A DNA stretch of 63,767 nt, filler included. It is 8 parts of 8 records of this genome, joined end to end, with 100 filler letters (N's around TTAATTAATTAA, not from the genome) between each part and the next. Parts side by side here need not be neighbours in the genome. Positions count along the whole stretch, not along the records: positions 46,265 to 58,255 come from DRR723986_19826; 7 more parts are not named here. The stretch is one strand, 5' to 3'. Shown here piece by piece: positions 46,165-58,355 of this stretch (positions are counted from its first letter, which is position 1; the number at the start of each line of letters is the position of its first letter). The notes under the pieces are model-generated. The model worked only from the letters and a program-made list of their open reading frames with translations, did not search any database and was not told the DNA's origin. Both the position numbers and the translations under genes were made by a program.

Positions 46165-46515
46165 NNNNNNNNNNNNNNNNNNNNNNNNNNNNNNNNNNNN
46201 NNNNNNNNTTAATTAATTAANNNNNNNNNNNNNNNNNNNNNNNNNNNNNNNNNNNNNNNNNNNNCTCACAGCACTTAGGGCTGTGAGCACGTTTTGCACA
46301 CAGCTACTAGCCCAAGCGCCCGCTGTCTACACGTCTCGGAACTCAAAGACTCAAGAGCCAAACATCAGACACCGGGCCCAAGGAATTTAAACCAACTCGC
46401 CGGCTTTGACAGCCTAACCCAAAACAAAACAAGAAACTCAAAAAGCTATACCGTAGGTATAAAGCGCTCATCCAGGACGTTAAGTAGATGGGGGTAGAAA
46501 GTAAACACTGAGGGA

Positions 46516-46950
46516 TCCGTCAACTCGTGAACATCAAACACAGCGAGGCACTTTAACACTTGAATATTAAACGCAGGCGAGGCCCGTCAACTCGCAAACT
46601 TCGCCCACAGGCGAGGCACTTTAACACTTGAACATTAAACGCAGGTGAGGCCCGCCAACTCGCAAACTTCAACCACAGACAAGGCTCGTTAACATGCGAA
46701 CATCTAACGCAGGTGAGGCCCGTTAGCTCGCGAACATCAAACACAGCGGGGCACATTAGCACTTGAATATTAAACACAGGCGGCAACAGTCAACTCGCAA
46801 ACTTCAACCACAAGCAAGGCTCGTTAACATGCGAACATTAAATACAGGCGAGGCTCGCCAACTCGCAAACTTCAGTCACAGGCAAGGCTCGTTAGCATGC
46901 AAACACTAAACACAGGTGGCAACTGTTAATTCGTGACAATTAAATAACGG
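46516..46950. repeat. Degenerate 34-bp tandem array of about 13 units with alternating unit types
   Basis: Unit starts at 46516, 46549, 46583, 46617, 46651, 46685, 46719, 46752, 46786, 46820, 46854, 46888, 46922; e.g. CACTTTAACACTTGAATATTAAACGCAGGCGAGG / CCCGTCAACTCGCAAACTTCGCCCACAGGCGAGG. Confidence 0.9.
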
Positions 46951-46995
46951 AAGAAGTACCAGGGACGTGCGGCGATGGTGACAGACCGACAAAAC

Positions 46996-47682
46996 CTAGA
47001 ATTCGCCGATAACGCGGCGCAGACCGGCAGGATCCAGAACAACTATTCCGGCATCTCCACGACGCAAAAGACCACGCTTGTCAAATTCGCGCAACAACTT
47101 AACTAAAGTGCCGTCGGCGCTGGTGGAAAGAGCGCTGATATCGTTAACATCCAGGCAAGGTTCGGTGTTAGGAGCCTCGCGCAATAGTGCTTCGCGCAAC
47201 ATTAACAACGCCCAGGCTACACGTTGGCGCGCAGAACGGGTGGACATACCAACAAGCGCAGCTTCAACATCTTCAACTTTGCGGCTGAGCATGGAAAAAA
47301 TGACGAGCTGGATCTGGGGCTGACTGCGCAGCAACTCTTCAAAAGCCGTACGATCAATGCGCAAGACTGCAACAGGGACAATTGCGGTGGCGCTGCTGGA
47401 GTGGCGTTCGCTGCGCATCACATCGCGGATTCCCAGGAAGTCGCCCTTGGTGGCAAGCCCTACAATACAGTCCTCGTTACGGCGGCATTTGCGGACGAGT
47501 TTAACGACCCCACGCTCTAAAGCAAAAATTGCATCGGCGGAATCACCCTCGTTGTAAATGCGTGTGCCGGCACTTACGGACTCCCAGGTCGCCTCAGACA
47601 ACAGCATGTCCATAGCCGACCGCAGGCGGGCTGCGTAGCTTGGCACTTCGAATAATGCTGCGGATTTGACGCTTGTGCTCAT
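46996..47682 (-). CDS. Crp/Fnr family regulator (divergent, no N-terminal Cys cluster)
   Basis: cNMP-binding fold IYNEGD..GVVKL..GDFLG; RQRVAWALL; weak HTH LLREFDKRGLL. Confidence 0.8.
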   Translation of the reverse strand: MSTSVKSAALFEVPSYAARLRSAMDMLLSEATWESVSAGTRIYNEGDSADAIFALERGVVKLVRKCRRNEDCIVGLATKGDFLGIRDVMRSERHSSSATAIVPVAVLRIDRTAFEELLRSQPQIQLVIFSMLSRKVEDVEAALVGMSTRSARQRVAWALLMLREALLREAPNTEPCLDVNDISALSTSADGTLVKLLREFDKRGLLRRGDAGIVVLDPAGLRRVIGEF

Positions 47683-47760
47683 TGTTAAACTTCTGCCGAT
47701 TGCATTACAATGGGGTTTTCAGACTTAGCGCAAAAATGAAGAGACACGAAACTTTAAACA

Positions 47761-47774
47761 ATGACAAATATCAC
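47761..47774. promoter_or_regulatory. FNR-like box upstream of the second Crp/Fnr gene
   Basis: ATGAC-AAAT-ATCAC compared with TTGAT-N4-ATCAA. Confidence 0.45.
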
Positions 47775-47878
47775 ATACGCAAATGATAGTCGCCTGCTCA
47801 AACTGGTGTTAAGCGGAGTGCAATGCGGCAACTGTTCTGCTGCAATCATCAGCCCGGGGGAGTACGGCAAAGGCCAAA

Positions 47879-48595
47879 TCAGTCGACCACGTTGGCCAGT
47901 TTGATCAATCCCTTTTTATCGGCAATTACGATGTTTTTGCCGCGAAGCTCCACAAAACCTTCTTTGCGAAACTCGGAGAGCAGGCGAATGCAGCTTTCGG
48001 TGGCCGTTCCAACGATATTTGCCAGGTCTTCGCGCGTCAACTGGATATCCAGGGTAACGCCGTCGTCCTGTGTACCAAAGGTTGTGCCCAGCATCAGGAG
48101 CGTCTGTGCAAGGCGTTCGCGTACCGGCATTTGTGAAAGTTCCACCATGCGCTCCTCGGCCTCACGCAGGTCGTGCGTCAGCAGTTGCATCAGGCGATTG
48201 AGCAGCTTGTGGTCTTCGGCTATCAACTCCATAAAAGCGGCTTGAGGGATGTGGCAGAGCACGGTTTCTTCCAGCGCTTCGGCGGTAGCGGAATAAAGTT
48301 CGCCACTGAGCAGGGCGCGGTAGCCAAGAACATCGCCGTTTTTAGCCAGGCGCACGATATGTTCGCGGCCGGATTCACTGGACTTGTAGATTTTGACTTT
48401 GCCTTTAAAGAGGCAGAAGAGGCCGGACGGGCGGTTGCCTTCATAGAAGATTATCTGCCCGCGCTTGTAGGTGTTTGTGTTCTTGGTGCTGTCAACTTTG
48501 AGTAAGCCCGAATGACTGAGGTCACACAGAATCGAGTTCTGACGCGCGCCACAGGAGGCACATTCAGGTGATTCAAACCGTTTCTTATTTGGCAT
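47879..48595 (-). CDS. Crp/Fnr family regulator, FNR-like O2 sensor
   Basis: N-terminal CASC-x8-C plus internal Cys; HTH LTREDLANIVGTATESCIRLLSEF; divergent from the cco cluster. Confidence 0.88.
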   Translation of the reverse strand: MPNKKRFESPECASCGARQNSILCDLSHSGLLKVDSTKNTNTYKRGQIIFYEGNRPSGLFCLFKGKVKIYKSSESGREHIVRLAKNGDVLGYRALLSGELYSATAEALEETVLCHIPQAAFMELIAEDHKLLNRLMQLLTHDLREAEERMVELSQMPVRERLAQTLLMLGTTFGTQDDGVTLDIQLTREDLANIVGTATESCIRLLSEFRKEGFVELRGKNIVIADKKGLIKLANVVD

Positions 48596-48727
48596 TGCCC
48601 TAACACCTTTCCGGAAGCACTACTGGAACGCAGCGTTGACAGAGTCAGTATTTCCGACTATTTGATCACATCCCCGGCAAAAATACAAAATGCTCAGGCC
48701 GCATTCCAACTAATCGGAAAGTCAGAC

Positions 48728-48763
48728 ATGATTTTTATCAGCTTTTAGCTTGACCGGGGTCAT
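48728..48763. promoter_or_regulatory. Tandem FNR-like boxes
   Basis: ATGAT-TTTT-ATCAG (48728-48741) and TTGAC-CGGG-GTCAT (48750-48763), 22 bp apart. Confidence 0.65.
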
Positions 48764-48902
48764 TTAGCACGCTGACCTGCTGCGCTAAATTGCCATGAAA
48801 TTAACGAGAATAGCCCAAAATCGGCACTAACATGTAACCATGGTGGCTGACGGGGCACTCGGTAAACTTCGCGGCACTGAGTTCGCGACGCAGGCGCTAA
48901 CC

Positions 48903-51383
48903 ATGACGAATAAAACGGCAACATCACCTACGGCAGAGGCTCTCCAGTGCACGCACTGCGGTCTGGACTGTCCCGACGACAGTATTGGCCGCGGCGATGC
49001 AATCTTCTGCTGTGAGGGTTGCCGGATAGTATTTGACATGCTTGCGGATCGCGACCTGGACGGGTATTACTGCCCAACGCCAGGTAGCGACGGACGCCCG
49101 GGGAATCGACTGGAAGCACTCCCCGACTCAAGTGATTTTGATTACCTGGACGATGAAGCGCTGTTGGCTCGCCTGCTGGATTTCCGCGGTGAAGACCTGG
49201 CGATTGTACGTCTGAAGATCCCGGGCATCCACTGTGCCTCTTGCGTCTGGCTGCTGGAAAACCTCTACAAGCTGGACGCCGGTGTGCGGCATTCCGAAGT
49301 CAACTTCATGCGCAAGGAGTTACAGCTGCGCTTTGATCCGCGGCAGACGAGTTTGCGCGCGATTGTAGAGCTGCTGTACAGCATTGCCTACCCACCCGAA
49401 ATCAATCTGGCTTCGGCGCGCAAAACAGCGGCGGCACCCACTGCGCGCATCGAATGGCTGCGCCTGGGCGTGGCGGGCTTCTGTTTTGGCAACATCATGC
49501 TTTTCAGCTTCCCGGAATATCTGGCCGGCGCTACGGGCCTGGCCGCCACCGGAAACATGGGACAGCAATTTGCCGACCTGTTTGCGTGGCTCAACCTGGG
49601 GCTTTCGCTGCCGGTTCTGCTGTTCAGCGCGGCGCCATTTTTCCGTTCGGCTTTCCACAGCATGCGTGGGCGCAATGTCAATATCGACGTGCCGATCGCG
49701 CTGGGTATCTGCGTGCTCTTCATTCGCAGCCTGGTGGACATCGCCATTCTTGGTGCTCCCGGCTTTCTGGATTCGATGGCCGCGCTGGTCTTCCTGCTGC
49801 TCCTGGGGCGTATGTTCCAGCGCAAGACCTATGACCGCCTGGCCTTTGACCGCGACTATGCAGCTTATTTCCCGCTTTCCGTGCGCATTGAAGCCGCAGA
49901 GGGCAATACAACACGCTCGCTGGACTCACTGGAGCCCGGCGATATTATTGTAATCCGCAATGGTGAGCTGATTCCGGCCGACGCGGTTCTGCTTTCCGAC
50001 GAAGCGGCGATAGACTACAGCTTTGTGACCGGCGAATCGGAAGCACAACAGCGCAGCAGCGGTGACCTTGTGTATGCCGGCGGGCGCCTGACGGGAGCCC
50101 AGGCGCGCTTCCAGACTGTTAAACAGGTGTCGCAGAGTTATCTGACCGACCTGTGGAACAACGGCGTTTTTGCGGGTGAAAAACACGCGGGTTTCAGCGA
50201 CCTTACAAACCGCTTCAGCAAATACTTCACGGCGGCAATTATCCTGATTGCGGCCGGCGCCGGATTGTACTGGACACTTGCCGCCGGAGACTTCAGCGCG
50301 GCGGTTGATGCCGCCACGGCCAGTTTAATTGTGGCCTGCCCCTGCGCGCTGGCGCTGGCGGGACCATTTACTTTTGGCTCGGCGCTGAGTGTTCTGGCGG
50401 GCCGCGGCCTGTATGTTAAAAATGCAGATACACTGGAACTGCTGGCTTCGGCAAGCACGGTAGTATTTGACAAAACCGGCACCTTAACACGCGCACAGAA
50501 CGCCGGGATGCACTACCACGGCATTGAGTTAACAATTGAAGAAATTGCAATGGTGGTTAAGACTGCCGAGGCATCCAACCATCCATTGAGCCGCGGCATC
50601 ACACAGCTTCTGGGCGAAGACGCAGAATACATTGGTGACGCAATCATTGACGAGCTGCCGGGCAAAGGTCTGCGCGCGCAGTTTTACAATGGTCACCAGG
50701 TGTTAATCGGTTCGGCGGCCTGGCTGGCGGCTGAAGGCATTAAGCTGCGCGAAGAATATCCGGTTAAGGACTCGGCGGCGCACCTGGCAATCGACAATCA
50801 ATATCTGGGTGCTTTTGTTCAGGAAAATACACTGCGCAGCGGCGTCGAGGCCATGCTGGCACGCCTGCGCAGCAAAGTTAAACTGTTTCTGCTCTCGGGT
50901 GATACGGCTCAAAAAAACAACTCCGTCAGAAGCGCATTACAGGGCGCATTTGGCGCTGAAGACAAGGTCCATTTTGAGCAGTCACCACATGACAAGCTTG
51001 AATTCCTGGATCAGCTGGAACAAGCCGGTGAAACCACGCTGATGGTAGGCGATGGACTTAACGATGCGGGCGCGCTGCGCCGCAGTACCGTTGGTGTGGC
51101 CGTGGTGGAAAACACGGCCTCTTTCACACCCGCAAGTGATGCGATTCTGGAAGCTGAGGCGCTGGCAGCGCTGCCGGACTTCCTGCGCTATTCGCGACGC
51201 TGCCTGCTGGTAGTAAAAATTTGTATCGGCCTTTCACTGATGTACAACATCGTTGGCCTGACGCTGGCGGTTCAGGGGCTGCTCTCTCCGTTGGCAAGCG
51301 CAATCCTGATGCCCGTCAGTTCAATTTCCGTCATTGTTTTAAGCACACTCGGCGCGCGTCTACGTGCTCCGCGGGAGGTCTAG
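48903..51383 (+). CDS. ccoI: Heavy-metal (Cu) P1B-type ATPase CcoI/FixI
   Basis: CTHCGLDC..FCCEGC, IHCASC, TGES, ACPCAL, DKTGT, GDGLNDA; head of the cco cluster. Confidence 0.92.
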   Translation: MTNKTATSPTAEALQCTHCGLDCPDDSIGRGDAIFCCEGCRIVFDMLADRDLDGYYCPTPGSDGRPGNRLEALPDSSDFDYLDDEALLARLLDFRGEDLAIVRLKIPGIHCASCVWLLENLYKLDAGVRHSEVNFMRKELQLRFDPRQTSLRAIVELLYSIAYPPEINLASARKTAAAPTARIEWLRLGVAGFCFGNIMLFSFPEYLAGATGLAATGNMGQQFADLFAWLNLGLSLPVLLFSAAPFFRSAFHSMRGRNVNIDVPIALGICVLFIRSLVDIAILGAPGFLDSMAALVFLLLLGRMFQRKTYDRLAFDRDYAAYFPLSVRIEAAEGNTTRSLDSLEPGDIIVIRNGELIPADAVLLSDEAAIDYSFVTGESEAQQRSSGDLVYAGGRLTGAQARFQTVKQVSQSYLTDLWNNGVFAGEKHAGFSDLTNRFSKYFTAAIILIAAGAGLYWTLAAGDFSAAVDAATASLIVACPCALALAGPFTFGSALSVLAGRGLYVKNADTLELLASASTVVFDKTGTLTRAQNAGMHYHGIELTIEEIAMVVKTAEASNHPLSRGITQLLGEDAEYIGDAIIDELPGKGLRAQFYNGHQVLIGSAAWLAAEGIKLREEYPVKDSAAHLAIDNQYLGAFVQENTLRSGVEAMLARLRSKVKLFLLSGDTAQKNNSVRSALQGAFGAEDKVHFEQSPHDKLEFLDQLEQAGETTLMVGDGLNDAGALRRSTVGVAVVENTASFTPASDAILEAEALAALPDFLRYSRRCLLVVKICIGLSLMYNIVGLTLAVQGLLSPLASAILMPVSSISVIVLSTLGARLRAPREV

Positions 51384-51384
51384 C

Positions 51385-51585
51385 ATGAGCGTTATTGTGG
51401 TCTTAATTGGCTGTAGCCTGCTGCTCGCCGTGGGTTTTCTGCTGGCTTTTGTCTGGGCGGTGCGCGGCGGTCAATTTGATGACCAATACACGCCTTCGGT
51501 CCGGATATTGTTTGACGGTGAAGATGTTAAATCTCCGCGGAAGGCTTCCGGGACTGATGTAGCCGGCGATCAGCCTGCTGCTTAA
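51385..51585 (+). CDS. ccoS: cbb3 oxidase assembly protein CcoS
   Basis: LLAFVWAVRGGQFDDQYTPSVRILFD. Confidence 0.92.
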   Translation: MSVIVVLIGCSLLLAVGFLLAFVWAVRGGQFDDQYTPSVRILFDGEDVKSPRKASGTDVAGDQPAA

Positions 51586-51654
51586 CGAAAATACGATCAA
51601 TTGCACAGTACAAAATAGTAGTACGGAACTGTTGAATCTTTCAGAGGTGTTTCC

Positions 51655-54177
51655 GTGAGTCTTGAGAAATTTCAATACGACAATGCGATCGTGCGCAACT
51701 TTGCGTTTGCGACGGTCATTTGGGGAATTGTCGGTTTCCTGGTGGGTTTAATCATCGCCATCAAGCTGATTTTTCCCGACTTCCTTGGGTTCATCCCCGA
51801 GCTGTCGTACGGGCGATTGCGTCCCCTGCACACGAATGCTGTGATATTTGCATTTGCGGGCAATGCGATCTTTTTAGGTGTTTACTATTCGCTACAGCGT
51901 TTGTGTAAAGCGCGGATGTTTAGCGATGTGTTAAGCAAAATCAACTTTTGGGGCTGGCAGGCTATCATCGTTTCGGCCGCTATATCCTTGCCGATGGGCT
52001 TTACATCCAGCAAGGAATACGCGGAGCTGGAATGGCCAATTGACCTTGCCATCGCAATTGTCTGGATCATCTTCGGCATTAACATGTTTGGTACGATCGC
52101 CAAGCGACGTGTTAAACACATGTATGTGGCGATATGGTTCTACCTTGCGACCTTCCTCACGGTGGCCCTGCTGCACGTGGTTAACTCCTTTGAGTTGCCG
52201 ATAGACATGATGAAGAGTTACTCGCTCTTTGCCGGGGTGCAGGATGCTTTGGTCCAGTGGTGGTATGGGCATAATGCCGTAGCATTTTTCCTGACGACGC
52301 CGTTCCTGGGGATCATGTACTACTTTATTCCCAAGGCGGCTAATCGACCGGTCTTCTCGTACCGGCTCTCGATCATTCACTTCTGGGCTTTGATTTTCAT
52401 CTACATCTGGGCCGGTCCACACCACCTGCTGTACACTGCTCTGCCAGACTGGGCACAGTCGCTGGGTGTCGCCTTTTCTGTGATGCTGATTGCTCCCTCC
52501 TGGGGTGGTATGATCAATGGTTTGTTAACACTGCGCGGCGCGTGGGACAAGGTGCGTGAAAGTCCCGTACTGAAGTTCATGGTTGTGGGTGTAACGGCCT
52601 ATGGTATGGCGACCTTTGAAGGTCCGATGATGTCGCTCAAAAATGTTAATGGTCTTGTGCACTACACAGACTACATCATTGGCCACGTGCACATGGGTGC
52701 GCTGGCATGGAATGGTGGTATCACATTTGCGATGTTGTACTACATCATCCCACGCATTTTCCAGACAAAAATAGCCTCCATGCGCATGGCCAACATGCAC
52801 TTTTGGGCTGCCACGCTGGGGATTGTGTTCTATGTATTCCCAATGTATATCGGCGGGATTACGCAGAGTTTGATGTGGAGTGAATTCCGTCCTGACGGCT
52901 TCCTGGCTTACGGCAACTTCCTGGATACGGTAACACAGATTATCCCAATGTATTACCTGCGCGCCGTTGGTGGTACGCTGTTTATCATTGGTGCTGTGAT
53001 CGGTTCGATTAACCTGTTCAAAACTGCCGCTTCCGGTACGCTGTTGCGCGATGAAGCGGATGAACATCCGGCCCTGCCACGCAATCCGGTCCAATCCGGC
53101 AAAGAGAGTTGGCACCGCGCGCTGGAAGCCAAACCAACCAAGATGGCTCTGCTCGCACTGGTAGCCGTATTAATTGGTGGCGTTATCGAATACATCCCAA
53201 CTGCGATGGTAGAAGCCAACGTACCAACGATTGCAAGTGTCAAACCATATACGCCGCTTGAGCTTGAAGGCCGCGACCTTTACATCCGCGAAGGCTGTAA
53301 CAACTGCCACTCGCAGATGATTCGCCCCTTCCGCGCCGAAACTGAGCGCTACGGAGAATACTCCAAAGCCGGCGAGTTTGTCTACGACCACCCCTTCCTG
53401 TGGGGCTCCAAACGCACGGGACCGGATTTGCACCGCATCGGTGGCAAGTACGGTGACGCATGGCATTACAATCACATGCTGGACCCCGAAATCACATCTC
53501 CCGGTTCCATCATGCCGGCTTATGACTGGATGATTGAAGACGAGCTGGATTACTCGCAGATCTCCAAGAAGATTTCGGTGATGCGTACACTTGGCGTGCC
53601 CTACGAAGAAGGTTTTGAGGACCTGGCTAAAGCCGACCTTGAAGCACAGGCACTCGCAATTTCCGAAGGACTCAAAGAGAGCAATATCACAGTTGCGCCC
53701 GACCGCGAAATCATTGCGATGATCGCATATCTGCAGCGCCTGGGTACGGACATCAGCGCTGAAGCCGAAAGCGAGGAAACTGACGAAGAGGAATATGTCT
53801 CCGATGAACCGGAATGGATCGACGGCTCCGAGCTGGAATTCCTGACGGACGACGAGAGTATTGCCGCCGGACGTGAAATCTACCTTGGTGTGGGCAACTG
53901 CGCCTCCTGCCACCGCGAAGACGGCGGCGGAGATATTGGTCCGAACCTGACAGATGACATGTGGATTAACGATTGCTCCGTGGACGGAATCATTAACTAT
54001 TCGGTGACTGGCTTTGAAGGCAAACTACACATGCCCGACACTGGTGCCGAACTGTTAAGTCTTGAAGACTTGCATCTGCTCGCCAGCTACGTGTACTCAT
54101 TGCGTGGCACTGACCCTCCAGACCCCAAGGAAGGTGATGCCGACCTGGAATGGCAATGTTATGAAGACGAAGAGTAA
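51655..54177 (+). CDS. ccoN: cbb3 oxidase CcoN-CcoO fusion with an additional C-terminal CcoP-like cytochrome c domain
   Basis: YGRLRPLHT, WWYGHNAV, GPHH, IGHVH (CcoN); EGCNNCHSQMIRP, GSKRTGPDL (CcoO); then an acidic linker and NCASCH..GPNLTD..LHMP. Confidence 0.93.
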   Translation: MSLEKFQYDNAIVRNFAFATVIWGIVGFLVGLIIAIKLIFPDFLGFIPELSYGRLRPLHTNAVIFAFAGNAIFLGVYYSLQRLCKARMFSDVLSKINFWGWQAIIVSAAISLPMGFTSSKEYAELEWPIDLAIAIVWIIFGINMFGTIAKRRVKHMYVAIWFYLATFLTVALLHVVNSFELPIDMMKSYSLFAGVQDALVQWWYGHNAVAFFLTTPFLGIMYYFIPKAANRPVFSYRLSIIHFWALIFIYIWAGPHHLLYTALPDWAQSLGVAFSVMLIAPSWGGMINGLLTLRGAWDKVRESPVLKFMVVGVTAYGMATFEGPMMSLKNVNGLVHYTDYIIGHVHMGALAWNGGITFAMLYYIIPRIFQTKIASMRMANMHFWAATLGIVFYVFPMYIGGITQSLMWSEFRPDGFLAYGNFLDTVTQIIPMYYLRAVGGTLFIIGAVIGSINLFKTAASGTLLRDEADEHPALPRNPVQSGKESWHRALEAKPTKMALLALVAVLIGGVIEYIPTAMVEANVPTIASVKPYTPLELEGRDLYIREGCNNCHSQMIRPFRAETERYGEYSKAGEFVYDHPFLWGSKRTGPDLHRIGGKYGDAWHYNHMLDPEITSPGSIMPAYDWMIEDELDYSQISKKISVMRTLGVPYEEGFEDLAKADLEAQALAISEGLKESNITVAPDREIIAMIAYLQRLGTDISAEAESEETDEEEYVSDEPEWIDGSELEFLTDDESIAAGREIYLGVGNCASCHREDGGGDIGPNLTDDMWINDCSVDGIINYSVTGFEGKLHMPDTGAELLSLEDLHLLASYVYSLRGTDPPDPKEGDADLEWQCYEDEE

Positions 54178-54217
54178 TCAACCTGTAAATGCTTAACCAA
54201 AGGATCAAGGGAAAACT

Positions 54218-54421
54218 ATGTATAAAGAAGTTCTGAGCTCCGTAGAGGGCATCGACATCTTTCCGATCATTTCCCTGCTGATATTTGTTTTGTTCTTTGT
54301 AGGCCTCATTATCTGGGTCATCAAAATGGACAAACAGCATTTGCAGGATATGGCCGCTCTGCCGCTCGACAGTGACTTAAACAGTGAGCACGCAACATTG
54401 TCTTCTGGGAGGATAAAGTAA
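54218..54421 (+). CDS. ccoQ: cbb3 oxidase subunit CcoQ
   Basis: Single TM, IFPIISLLIFVLFFVG...MAALPLD; TAATG overlap with ccoP. Confidence 0.85.
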   Translation: MYKEVLSSVEGIDIFPIISLLIFVLFFVGLIIWVIKMDKQHLQDMAALPLDSDLNSEHATLSSGRIK

Positions 54422-55026
54422 TGAGTCAGGAAATGCAAGACGACAATTTGCTCAATCACGAGTACGACGGCATTCGCGAACTCGACAATCAGCTGCCGCG
54501 CTGGTGGCTCTACGGTTTCTACTTTACCATCATCTTTGGTGTGGTGTACATGCTGTACTATCACGGTATGGACGCCGGGCCAAGCTCAGCCGAAGAATAT
54601 GCCGCGGAACTGCAGGAAGCATTTGACCTGTATGGCATTGACCCCGAAAAAGGCGCCAATGACCCGGCACGCCTGATGGCGGCGATGACGATAGAGTTGC
54701 GCACCGACGAAGCCAGCCTGGCGGCCGGCAAGGAAATCTTTAACGGTAAAGGTATCTGCTATACCTGCCACAAAGAAGACCTTGGCGGTAGCATCGGCCC
54801 GAACTTAACAGATGAATATTGGCTGCACGGCTGTGACCTCAAAACAGTAGTGACGAATATCATGACCGGTTTCCCCGATAAAGGTATGATTCCATACGGC
54901 AGCGGCTCTCCCCTCACAGAGGATGAACTGATGCAGGTGTCGAGTTACATCCTATCGATGCAGGGTAGTAACCCTCCGGAACCCAAACCGGCAGATATGG
55001 AACGAGCCCAGATTTGTTCGGAATAA
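54421..55026 (+). CDS. ccoP: cbb3 oxidase subunit CcoP (monoheme)
   Basis: HEYDGIRELDNQLPRWW; a single CYTCH; GPNLTDEYWLHG; KGMIP. Confidence 0.92.
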   Translation: MSQEMQDDNLLNHEYDGIRELDNQLPRWWLYGFYFTIIFGVVYMLYYHGMDAGPSSAEEYAAELQEAFDLYGIDPEKGANDPARLMAAMTIELRTDEASLAAGKEIFNGKGICYTCHKEDLGGSIGPNLTDEYWLHGCDLKTVVTNIMTGFPDKGMIPYGSGSPLTEDELMQVSSYILSMQGSNPPEPKPADMERAQICSE

Positions 55027-55032
55027 GTTAAC

Positions 55033-55069
55033 AAAAAGGCCCGCTCGGAATTCTATCCGGCGGGCCTTT
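55033..55069 (+). terminator. Intrinsic terminator after ccoP
   Basis: AAAAGGCCCGC...GCGGGCCTTTT. Confidence 0.7.
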
Positions 55070-55170
55070 TGATGATGACGATCGGTCAGATGAAATTGGT
55101 AGACAATACAACACACTCGGTTGAATACGCGACGCCTCAATTTGTCATACAAACGCACAGTTGAAATCCC

Positions 55171-56622
55171 ATGGCCAGGCAAGACTCATCAACTCAGGAA
55201 GAAAGCTTTCGCGACAAGATGTACAATGTTGCGGAAGACGGTAAACGCCTCAAGATTTACCCCAAAAAAGTGTCGGGCAAGTTTTACAAAGGGCGAACAT
55301 GGTTTAGTTGGCTCCTGCTGACGCTGATGTTCACCGGCCCGTTCATTAAAATTAACGGCCACCAATTACTCCTGTTAAACCTCCTGGAGCGCAAGTTTGT
55401 GCTCTTTGGGGTGCCGTTCTGGCCGCAGGACTTCCACCTGGTGGTTTTGTGCGGTCTGACCTTAATAGTTTTTATCGTACTGTTTACGGCAATCTTTGGA
55501 AGGGTCTGGTGTGGCTGGGCCTGCCCGCAGACGATTTTCCTGGAGATGCTCTTCCGCAAGATTGAATACGCGATTGAAGGCGACGCTCCACGTGCGCGCA
55601 GCCTGGACCGCCGCAAATTAGACTTTGAGAAGTTCTGGAAAAAGACACTTAAACACAGCATCTTCTACGCCCTCTCATTTGTCATTGCCAATGTGTTCCT
55701 GGCCTATATTATTGGCTCGGATGAACTACTCAAAATTATCTCTGATCCGGTCAATGAACACCTTACCGGCTTCGGCATTATTCTCTTATTTAGCGGCGTC
55801 TTCTACGGCGTCTTTGCCAAGTTCCGCGAACAGGCATGTATTATCGTTTGCCCCTACGGCAGATTTCAGTCGGCGCTGGTAGATGAAAACACCATCGCCG
55901 TCACCTATGACTTTAAGCGCGGTGAATCGCGCGGGCACTTAACACGCGATGACAAAAACCGCATGCAAGCCGGCGAAGCGCTCAAAACCGCCGAACGTGG
56001 CGACTGCATCGACTGCCACCAATGTGTAGACGTCTGCCCCACCGGAATTGACATTCGCAACGGTATTCAGCTGGAATGTGTTAACTGCACGGCCTGCATC
56101 GATGCCTGCGACGAAGTGATGGACAAAATTGATCAGCCGCGCGGGCTGGTGCGTTACGCTTCACTTAACAGTATCAGGAATCCGCAAAAACGCCTCTTCA
56201 GCAAACGTGTTATCGCCTACAGCGGTGTATTACTTGTGCTGATCGGCCTGCTGGGATACTTCTTCTCAATACGCGGTGAAGTAGAAGCCACAATCCTGCG
56301 CCAGAGCGGCACACTTTACAGCGAGCTGGAAAACGGCGCATATGCCAACTTCTACTCGTACAATATTGTTAACAAAACATTTGAAGACCTGAATTACGAC
56401 ATTCGCCTGCTCAGCCCCGAAGGCGGCGAGCTACAAATGTTAACACAGGATCAAACAATCGCCGGACAAACACGCGCCACGGGCAGATTCCTGCTGCGCA
56501 TGCCCGGCAGCCTGCTGCAAGGCAAACAAACCGACATCCGTTTTGCAGTCTACGACGGCGAACGCCTGCTGGAAGTAGTTGAAACCTACTTCCTGGGGCC
56601 AACTCCCGGCGAGAATCCTTAA
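55171..56622 (+). CDS. ccoG: Cytochrome c oxidase accessory protein CcoG
   Basis: RVWCGWACPQT, CPYGRFQ, CIDCHQCVDVCPTGIDIRNG.QLECVNCTACIDAC. Confidence 0.95.
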   Translation: MARQDSSTQEESFRDKMYNVAEDGKRLKIYPKKVSGKFYKGRTWFSWLLLTLMFTGPFIKINGHQLLLLNLLERKFVLFGVPFWPQDFHLVVLCGLTLIVFIVLFTAIFGRVWCGWACPQTIFLEMLFRKIEYAIEGDAPRARSLDRRKLDFEKFWKKTLKHSIFYALSFVIANVFLAYIIGSDELLKIISDPVNEHLTGFGIILLFSGVFYGVFAKFREQACIIVCPYGRFQSALVDENTIAVTYDFKRGESRGHLTRDDKNRMQAGEALKTAERGDCIDCHQCVDVCPTGIDIRNGIQLECVNCTACIDACDEVMDKIDQPRGLVRYASLNSIRNPQKRLFSKRVIAYSGVLLVLIGLLGYFFSIRGEVEATILRQSGTLYSELENGAYANFYSYNIVNKTFEDLNYDIRLLSPEGGELQMLTQDQTIAGQTRATGRFLLRMPGSLLQGKQTDIRFAVYDGERLLEVVETYFLGPTPGENP

Positions 56623-56718
56623 TATACATTTCGGCGTTGATCGTCCGGCAGTCTGGCCCGACATCTCAGATGCCCGGGCCCATAACATTGAACCACAGCT
56701 AAGGCAGGAATAGACATT

Positions 56719-57225
56719 ATGGAAATTCACGATAAAGATTCGGCTACGCCGGGCCGCGAATCCAGCACCTGGCGGCAGGGCGGCAAGTTCTGGATCTACG
56801 GTATTTTTGGTGCCTTTGCAGTTTTCATGGGCGGCGTGGGTGTTTTCCTCTTCATCGCATTTTCGCAGGACTACGACCTGGTGCGCAAAGATTACTACGA
56901 GGCGGAAAAAACCTACGATGCACATCAGTCACGTGCACAGCGTGCGCTGGACACGGAACACACACTCGAAGTCAGCTATCAGAAAGACTCCAGGAAAATT
57001 GTGGTTGACTTCGGCAAGGGACAGACCGGCCCCGTGGTTGCGACGCTGCACCTGTACCGCGCATCCGATGCGGAAAAGGACGAAGTCCACAAGCTGGAGT
57101 TTGCCCAGGCGCCTTACAAACGGGACATCAATGCCGCACACTTAGCCCCCGGCAAATGGACGGCTAAACTCACCTGGGTTTCCGACCACGAGGAGTATTT
57201 CTCCGAAGTAGACCTGATTATTTAA
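56719..57225 (+). CDS. ccoH: FixH/CcoH family protein
   Basis: One TM, DLVRKDYYE, LYRASDAEKD; position after ccoG. Confidence 0.85.
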   Translation: MEIHDKDSATPGRESSTWRQGGKFWIYGIFGAFAVFMGGVGVFLFIAFSQDYDLVRKDYYEAEKTYDAHQSRAQRALDTEHTLEVSYQKDSRKIVVDFGKGQTGPVVATLHLYRASDAEKDEVHKLEFAQAPYKRDINAAHLAPGKWTAKLTWVSDHEEYFSEVDLII

Positions 57226-57239
57226 CGCGCGAGTTGGGC

Positions 57240-57950
57240 ATGAATGAATTTTTGTTCGCAGCACTTAGCGTAGGATTTGTAGGCAGCATCCACTGCATCG
57301 GCATGTGTGGACCGATTGCTTTGGCGCTGCCGCGCGGCGGTGGTGGCAAGCTGGCCCTGCTGGGCAGCCGTCTGCTGTATAATGGCGGCCGCATCGTGAC
57401 CTACGCGCTGCTCGGGACGCTGTTTGGCGCGGTGGGTGGATTGATCGATATTGCCGGGGCGCAACAGGGCCTCTCGATTGGCATTGGTGTGCTGGTTATC
57501 ACGATGGTGCTCCTGCCTGCCAGGCTGAAGGCGCAATTGCGCGGCACGTTGGGCGAAAATCCAATCGGCGCTTTCGTCCGTAAGGGCGTGGGTAGCCTGT
57601 TCCGCTCGCGTAAAAGTTCTGCGCTGCTTGGTATTGGCCTGCTCAATGGTTTGCTGCCCTGCGGATTTGTGTATATCGGCATTGCCGGCGCGGTACTGGG
57701 TGATGGTCCGCTGGACGGCATGCTTTACATGACCTTTTTTGGCCTGGGCACAATTCCGCTGATGCTGCTGACGAGTTTAGCGGGCGACACTTTTGGTGCT
57801 CCGCTGCGCCGCCGCATTACGCGTTTGATTCCGGCGATGGCTTTTGTTCTGGGTTTGTTGTTTATAGCGCGCGGTATGGCGCTGGACATTCCCCTGCTTA
57901 GTCCACCTGCTGCGGGATTAAATGTTGAAGATCCTGCCTGCTGCCACTGA
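57240..57950 (+). CDS. DsbD_2 / TauE-SafE family membrane protein of the cbb3 cluster
   Basis: GSIHCIGMCGPI, YNGGRIVTY, NGLLPCGFVY, FGLGTIP. Confidence 0.88.
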   Translation: MNEFLFAALSVGFVGSIHCIGMCGPIALALPRGGGGKLALLGSRLLYNGGRIVTYALLGTLFGAVGGLIDIAGAQQGLSIGIGVLVITMVLLPARLKAQLRGTLGENPIGAFVRKGVGSLFRSRKSSALLGIGLLNGLLPCGFVYIGIAGAVLGDGPLDGMLYMTFFGLGTIPLMLLTSLAGDTFGAPLRRRITRLIPAMAFVLGLLFIARGMALDIPLLSPPAAGLNVEDPACCH

Positions 57951-58355
57951 CTTGATTTTTTTGTTAGGCACTGGGTTAGAATCCTCAGGTCACTGCTGCT
58001 CGATGCTTTTTGCTCATGGGTTTGAAGTCTTGGAACTTTGAGCCCACCACAAGTTCAAAGACTCAACAGTCAAACTACAAGGCTAAAAGCTCCCAAGTTT
58101 CAAATTGGTGCGCCCAAAGGCTGCAGTCTGGTGGCACAGACATTGATTTTCGATCACAAGGCTCACAGTCTGAAGAATTGTAGAATTTCAGAGTGAATGT
58201 TATCTGAAATTCTCGAGAATTTGGACTTCAAGACACCCGGGTCGAGCCCTAAGGGNNNNNNNNNNNNNNNNNNNNNNNNNNNNNNNNNNNNNNNNNNNNT
58301 TAATTAATTAANNNNNNNNNNNNNNNNNNNNNNNNNNNNNNNNNNNNNNNNNNNN

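Follow-up and report, generated by a model that had tools for sequence, protein, structure and literature searches.

cbb3 oxidases serve bacterial respiration at very low oxygen, and a gene cluster for one of them lies in the stretch of DNA analyzed here (the window; 63,767 nucleotides). The window comprises eight segments with GC contents of 0.35 to 0.62, joined by N-spacer-N linkers; adjoining segments are probably unrelated contigs, and only positions 46265 to 58255 bear on the finding. The gene order on this contig is two Crp/Fnr genes (minus strand), ccoI, ccoS, ccoNO, ccoQ, ccoP, ccoG, ccoH, and a DsbD_2 gene. The ccoNO gene encodes fused CcoN and CcoO subunits and runs on into an additional c-type heme domain, here called the tail.

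The fusion occupies positions 51655 to 54177 of the plus strand as one stop-free open reading frame of 840 amino acids (aa), in agreement with the original prediction of a CcoN-CcoO-cytochrome fusion in a single frame. Its Pfam domains are COX1 (residues 12 to 442), FixO (487 to 700), and Cytochrome_CBB3 (736 to 813; 37.3 bits, cutoff of 27), and the tail domain is also above the cutoff for Cytochrom_C. The model of fused CcoNO proteins, PRK14485, matched residues 2 to 711 with a score of 1252.9 (cutoff of 1080). In the CcoN part, H59, H206, Y250, H256, H257, E322, H344, and H346 match chain A of the Pseudomonas stutzeri structure 3MK7 with an offset of +1. Apart from three of the histidines, we take these residues to be ligands of heme b, heme b3, and CuB and the active-site Tyr and Glu. 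The roles of the three (H207, H257, and H258 in cbb3 CcoN) were taken from the part of PMC3578206 available to us. The CcoO part is monoheme and carries a membrane anchor (FixO, 328 bits; TIGR00781, 248.5 against a cutoff of 200.65; hydrophobic helix at residues 497 to 515). Past the CcoO end, the chain passes through a 28-residue linker, half of it Asp or Glu (14 residues), into a domain with a CxxCH motif at residues 749 to 753 and two further cysteines, Cys774 and Cys835. A full-length AlphaFold2 model built from a 30-row alignment (mean predicted local distance difference test score [pLDDT] of 68.7) has a disordered linker followed by class I helices at residues 733 to 744, 748 to 753, 776 to 785, and 803 to 815. 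With a net charge of -17, the tail was the most acidic among 256 domains measured.

The tail was said to be akin to the CcoP encoded downstream, and the two align without gaps over 128 positions, 48 of which are identical (38%; BLASTP E value of 2e-32); the local-alignment score was 259, against a maximum of 56 over 500 shuffles. As also predicted, this CcoP is monoheme, consisting of FixP_N and a single heme domain with one CxxCH, and it scored 95.6 with the diheme CcoP model TIGR00782 (cutoff of 179.95). The extra cysteine pair noted in both proteins is present as Cys774/Cys835 in the tail and Cys138/Cys199 in CcoP.

The in-frame junction is shared by three independent assemblies, P0001, P0003, and P0002. 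Between the window and the P0001 lineage, identity is 91% for CcoN, 84% for CcoO, 80% for the tail domain, and 76% for the CcoP domain. In the comparison with P0002, the tail is 54% and the CcoP domain 71% identical; the P0002 tail is intermediate and retains the CcoP-type Met loop. Heme-bearing CcoPs P0286, P0285, and P0005 were assigned to P0001, P0003, and P0002, respectively, with linkage inferred from contigs of equal size. The fusion is genuine and not an assembly error, because the architecture recurs in 28 of the 120 protein clusters listed. The features of the locus are collected in Table 1.

Table 1. Features of the cbb3 oxidase gene cluster, in window positions
Feature	Positions	Strand	Support or remarks
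ccoI, P1B-type metal-transporting ATPase, assembly factor	48840..51383	+	Pfam ATPase-cat_bd, HMA, E1-E2_ATPase, Hydrolase
ccoS (FixS), maturation protein	51385..51585	+	Pfam FixS, E 4.5e-21
Fusion, CcoN part (catalytic subunit with heme b and b3-CuB)	51655..53070	+	COX1; TIGR00780 above cutoff
Connector between N and O, and the CcoO part with its membrane helix and monoheme domain (CxxCH at aa 548)	53071..53754	+	FixO 487-700; TIGR00781 above cutoff
Acidic linker, aa 701-729, predicted flexible	53755..53841	+	14 Asp/Glu in 28 residues; pLDDT < 50 at 697-719
Additional class I cytochrome c domain of the CcoP type, with CxxCH at aa 749-753, Cys774/Cys835, His792-Met793-Pro794, net charge -17	53842..54177	+	
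Codons of His792 (aligned with the Met that is invariant in the family) and of the adjoining Met793	54028..54033	+	
ccoQ	54218..54421	+	Pfam FixQ, E 5.4e-05, below gathering cutoff; canonical position
ccoP, monoheme: FixP_N, CxxCH at aa 113-117, Met156, Cys138/Cys199	54421..55026	+	201 aa
ccoG	55171..56622	+	TIGR02745, 428 bits (cutoff 317)
ccoH (FixH)	56719..57225	+	Pfam FixH, E 9e-20
DsbD_2-family membrane protein, last gene of the cluster	57234..57950	+	Pfam DsbD_2, E 2e-44

Upstream, the two Crp/Fnr-family genes (46996 to 48595, minus strand) diverge from ccoI. An exact FNR-like palindrome lies at 48750 to 48763, 77 bp upstream of ccoI, and a site with one mismatch lies at 48728; chance alone would give about 28 matches with one mismatch in the window. 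Noncoding DNA close to the contig end contains an imperfect tandem repeat with a period of ∼68 bp (46517 to 46922). In the gap between ccoP and ccoG, an inverted repeat of 11 bp, flanked by A and T (55034 to 55070), looks terminator-like by eye and is absent from the list of the consensus scan.

The Met of the CcoP ligand loop is found in all 225 CcoP domains and in 29 of 32 tails. In the other three tails (window, P0001, and P0003), this column holds His, and Met follows one residue later. We take the family Met to be the axial heme ligand, and the L-H-M-P loop of the tail had been predicted to supply a plain axial Met in the same way. That assignment is uncertain because the Met of CcoP (G-M-I-P) pairs with His792 and not with Met793, both in the ungapped alignment and in the family hidden Markov model. 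When this model was built without the three tails, their His was aligned to the Met state, with a posterior symbol of an asterisk for P0001 and P0003 and of 8 for the window. The family Met pairs with a Met-Pro in solved CcoPs, within their first heme domain. HMMER comparisons with these proteins can instead pair Met793-Pro with their Met-Pro. In solved CcoPs, Pro immediately follows the Met, so that with the register shifted, Met793 would be just as plausible a ligand. The chances of His792 and Met793 as the sixth ligand are about even. The occurrence of His792 in the aligned column of the otherwise invariant CcoP Met is a new feature. There is a precedent for a bis-His class I cytochrome c in MtoD, at +155 mV (PMC4412085, available to us in part). 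Within the portions available to us of the literature, chiefly open access, we found neither the His substitution described nor a CcoNO that carries a heme derived from CcoP while a separate CcoP is kept; the available portions of PMC13253579, PMC5829832, PMC10556555, PMC8115632, PMC10579370, and PMC10732223 contain nothing on such a fusion.

The architecture is rare but recurrent. When the window tail alone was the query, two proteins were found among 246 candidates. When the CcoO part plus tail of P0002 was the query, at least 28 clusters combining COX1, FixO, and a cytochrome c domain were found among the best 120 of 8000 candidates, a number that is a lower bound. The source names of these clusters include Latescibacterota, Gemmatimonadota, Calditrichota, and Deferribacteres/KSB1, and examples of the fusion proteins are NKB69347.1, MBT7860864.1, KAA3614599.1, and MCA9734680.1. 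The comparative survey of cbb3 oxidases by Ducluzeau et al. in 2008 may list such fusions. The original prediction that the architecture is undescribed thus did not hold, given these clusters and the published enzyme of Nitrospina gracilis, in which CcoN, CcoO, and cytochrome form a single chain (PMC3578206, in the part available).

Ordinary CcoNO proteins end 3 to 25 aa past the CcoO match, as seen in 96/96 fetched loci with a CcoO match. The genome scan gave 80 loci among the matches listed, all of them nonfused, and the metagenome scan gave 28, with L093 the sole relevant locus. Five genome-group searches gave no stop-free match into the tail among those searched (45/86 for the group of L031, 36/101, 40/251 at an E value of ≤1e-100, 4/251 at an E value of ≤1e-103, and 45/151; the 4/251 set overlaps the 36/101 set). 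A 1240-aa frame in G637 turned out to be a stretch left open on its N-terminal side, with a single heme motif. The viral scan gave two weak loci resembling the CcoP N terminus on IMG/VR contigs (L137:4657-4794 and L138:2136-2273), which may be host DNA. Several CcoNO or CcoO chains (P0307, P0392, P0297, P0294, P0358, P0373, and P0380) carry between one and three additional heme motifs, in domains that do not resemble the window tail; unrelated cytochrome tails occur on CcoNO or CcoO in P0307, P0392, P0294, and P0380. Among the nearest nonfused CcoNO proteins, P0146, P0148, and P0150 have somewhat longer C-terminal ends that resemble the start of the Latescibacterota-type linker and are possibly relics of a lost tail.

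Both the cysteine pair and the heme-domain trees bear on the origin of the tail. The pair is present in 110 of the 123 top CcoP matches and in 25 of 32 tails, compared with 17 of 102 CcoPs of other loci and none of seven outgroup domains. In the heme-domain trees, which were quick trees of ∼120 columns using 127/264 and 36/264 rows, the tails of the window, P0001, P0003, and P0002 form a starred clade within a starred (99) group of mostly Cys-pair CcoP domains, and this clade branches from a fork shared with the lineage's own CcoPs. By its sequence, the tail derives from the Cys-pair CcoP subfamily. The proposal that the tail arose by local duplication of ccoP is therefore upheld as to the subfamily of origin but not as to a recent event: the proteins are only 38% identical, and a recent tandem duplication was rejected because the DNA holds only a 16-nucleotide repeat (81%) and a 52-bp match (73%). 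Since so little DNA similarity remains, the copy is old. A sister grouping of the window-type tails with their own CcoPs, put forward along with the duplication, was neither demonstrated nor rejected by phylogeny, being compatible with the data in an approximately unbiased (AU) test (p-AU = 0.46).

In these trees, CcoP-type tails arose more than once. Monophyly of all tails was rejected (p-AU = 0.0008; LG+G4; the groups tested were picked after the first heme-domain tree had been seen). The KSB1-type tails (P0144 and P0145) and the P0147-type tails lack the cysteine pair, and their best matches are other CcoPs. A tree of the CcoNO core (72 rows, 700 columns) unites the window and Latescibacterota-type groups in one clade (Shimodaira-Hasegawa-like approximate likelihood ratio test, 93) and places the KSB1 and P0147 types elsewhere.

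The relevant metagenomic locus, L093, begins with a 5'-truncated tail-type heme domain; next come ccoQ, a CcoP of 127 aa that lacks heme, and ccoG. The ten best nonself matches of its heme domain are all fusion tails, the top one at 74% identity. Its CcoP (L093:490-873, P0438 cluster) has FixP_N and a second hydrophobic helix at residues 98 to 116 and no CxxCH; the cluster has 12 members of 124 to 129 aa. An atlas search with this protein returned only FixP_N clusters (0.86) and is a lead only. The tail-type domain ahead of a heme-less CcoP in this one related locus is new, and it suggests duplication followed by loss. The simplest history would be duplication, fusion to CcoO, and then loss of the CcoP heme in some lineages; by its heme motifs, the window lineage retained both copies.

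Compared with known systems, the window enzyme is a member of the cbb3 family with a new architectural variant and not a new kind of system. It shares fused CcoNO, monoheme CcoP, and the order ccoI-S-NO-Q-P-G-H-DsbD_2 with the type found in Bacteroidota and Ignavibacteria (PRK14485/NF011053; Melioribacter roseus, in the available part of PMC5492636), which ends shortly past CcoO, whereas the window chain runs on for 140 aa with a further heme domain. The 954-aa cbb3 chain of N. gracilis, known to us by description only (the available part of PMC3578206), likewise joins subunits I and II and the cytochrome c domain(s) within a single polypeptide. Its fused portion, which takes the place of subunit III, is diheme, and Gly is found instead of Trp203; in the window, one heme derived from a monoheme CcoP is added, a separate heme-bearing CcoP is present, and the Trp is kept. 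CcoO-cytochrome c fusions (PRK14486/NF011054) also carry a cytochrome c at the CcoO C terminus, and the model covers aa 490 to 817 of the window protein. Its score is 246.5 against a cutoff of 447, CcoO of that family is not joined to CcoN, and the extra domains of the fusions sampled lie outside the CcoP clade in the heme-domain tree.

All solved cbb3 structures among the matches are proteobacterial, and the best solved-structure matches of the tail are CcoP heme domains. The CcoNOQP enzymes with diheme CcoP (P. stutzeri 3MK7, Rhodobacter capsulatus 6XKW, and Pseudomonas aeruginosa 8SMR) share the catalytic residues and the three c-hemes predicted for the window, but their third c-heme is the second CcoP domain, while that of the window hangs on CcoO. 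An extra c-heme domain tethered through duplication or fusion is also found in the tri-heme CcoP of Neisseria (PMC2924362) and in an engineered CcoP-cy (PMC7876108). According to the available parts of both sources, those domains come from cytochrome c5 or cy and sit on CcoP; the domain in the window comes from CcoP and sits on CcoO. MtoD is a further point of comparison: His stands in place of Met in its class I monoheme fold, and it may donate to cbb3. It is a separate soluble protein, however, and bis-His coordination in the tail is only possible (PMC4412085, in part).

We consider it probable that this is a cbb3 oxidase with an intact core and a tethered extra c-heme, likely an old copy of that of the monoheme CcoP and likely the outer point of electron entry. 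Because the CcoO C terminus is inferred to be periplasmic, the tail would be periplasmic and would be loaded with heme. The complex would then hold three c-hemes, as predicted originally, reaching the proteobacterial count (co, cp1, and cp2) by another route. Electrons would pass from a donor cytochrome to the tail heme, on to the CcoP or CcoO heme, and then to heme b and b3-CuB. So acidic a tail would suit a basic donor, and a tether of ∼28 residues would allow local movement but not long-range shuttling. For enzymes with diheme CcoP, electrons from cytochrome c2 have been proposed to enter at the outer CcoP heme, and the engineered CcoP-cy fusion, whose cy linker has 69 residues compared with ∼28 in the window tail, is functional (PMC7876108, available in part). 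As to its origin, duplication of the ccoQ-ccoP region followed by an in-frame deletion would yield the order NO-tail, Q, P; relatives such as L093 would then have lost the CcoP copy of the heme, and the window lineage would have kept both and remodeled the ligand loop of the tail. Going beyond this, we regard it as possible but doubtful that the window captures an intermediate in a recurrent migration of the CcoP heme onto CcoO, with the spare rebuilt as a bis-His, lower-potential, acidic heme that would form a second port for a different donor.

Several observations weigh against tethered electron entry through an old CcoP copy. The soluble domain of CcoO is likewise acidic (net charge of -14), which disfavors simple electrostatic docking of the tail on CcoO, and the AlphaFold2 ligand loop (residues 791 to 799) has a pLDDT below 50. 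The heme-domain trees leave the exact sister of the tail unfixed, and the free trees separate the window tails from the Latescibacterota-type tails. A single origin of all Cys-type tails is neither rejected nor demonstrated (p-AU = 0.38, or 0.45 without P0142). Nonfused P0146, P0148, P0149, and P0150 fall inside the same CcoNO clade as the fusions. The link to a heme-less CcoP comes from one 1.6-kb contig without the CcoNO part.

The tail could instead be a branch point to or from another periplasmic enzyme, its ligand loop tuning the potential, by analogy with Neisseria CcoP, whose third heme supports the nitrite reductase NirK (PMC2924362, in the part available). A tail that diverged fast early (54% identity to P0002, against 71% for the CcoP domain) and was later conserved (80%) would fit such a role, as would the confinement of His-for-Met to 3 of 32 tails and 0 of 225 CcoPs, but no candidate partner gene is annotated in the cluster region scanned, and we consider this reading unlikely. 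The tail could also be a redundant or decaying duplicate, with the work done by the CcoP heme and the tail either tolerated or limited to a structural or assembly role. Its long branch, the loss of an otherwise invariant Met-loop motif, its extreme acidity, and the existence of close nonfused relatives are consistent with decay. Against this, CxxCH, the cysteine pair, and H-M-P are all kept between the window and P0001 at an identity as high as that of the CcoP domain, and related tails must function if CcoP there is heme-less. Fast early divergence followed by CcoP-like conservation is more in keeping with a new role under selection than with decay, and we think the duplicate reading quite improbable.

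An exchange of sites, with the tail taking the normal position of the CcoP heme on CcoO and the CcoP heme becoming the outer, donor-facing center, would agree with the L093 arrangement, where the tail would have to hold that site, and with the short linker that ties the tail covalently to CcoO. Yet of the two copies in the window it is the tail that has changed, whereas the CcoP domain retains all motifs of the family; this suggests that CcoP kept the ancestral site, and we think the exchange very improbable. Finally, because the contig is a 12-kb metagenome fragment, an assembly or sequencing artifact could in principle have removed a stop or joined two ccoP copies, but P0001, P0003, P0002, and another 26 clusters of varied source share the junction, and domains only 38% identical are no collapsed repeat; the chance of an artifact is negligible.

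The electron-input module of cbb3 oxidases is thus mobile, its CcoP heme domain having been attached to CcoO more than once. The extra heme is overlooked because the annotation of such fusions goes no further than "subunit I" or "I/II," and CcoPs without heme may be taken for fragments. As a small soluble domain, the tail lends itself to the study of a ligand switch from Met to His inside a single family. The three states of the c-heme, on CcoP only, on both subunits, and probably on CcoO only with a heme-less CcoP, would form a natural series bearing on the purpose of each c-heme and of the CcoP anchor.

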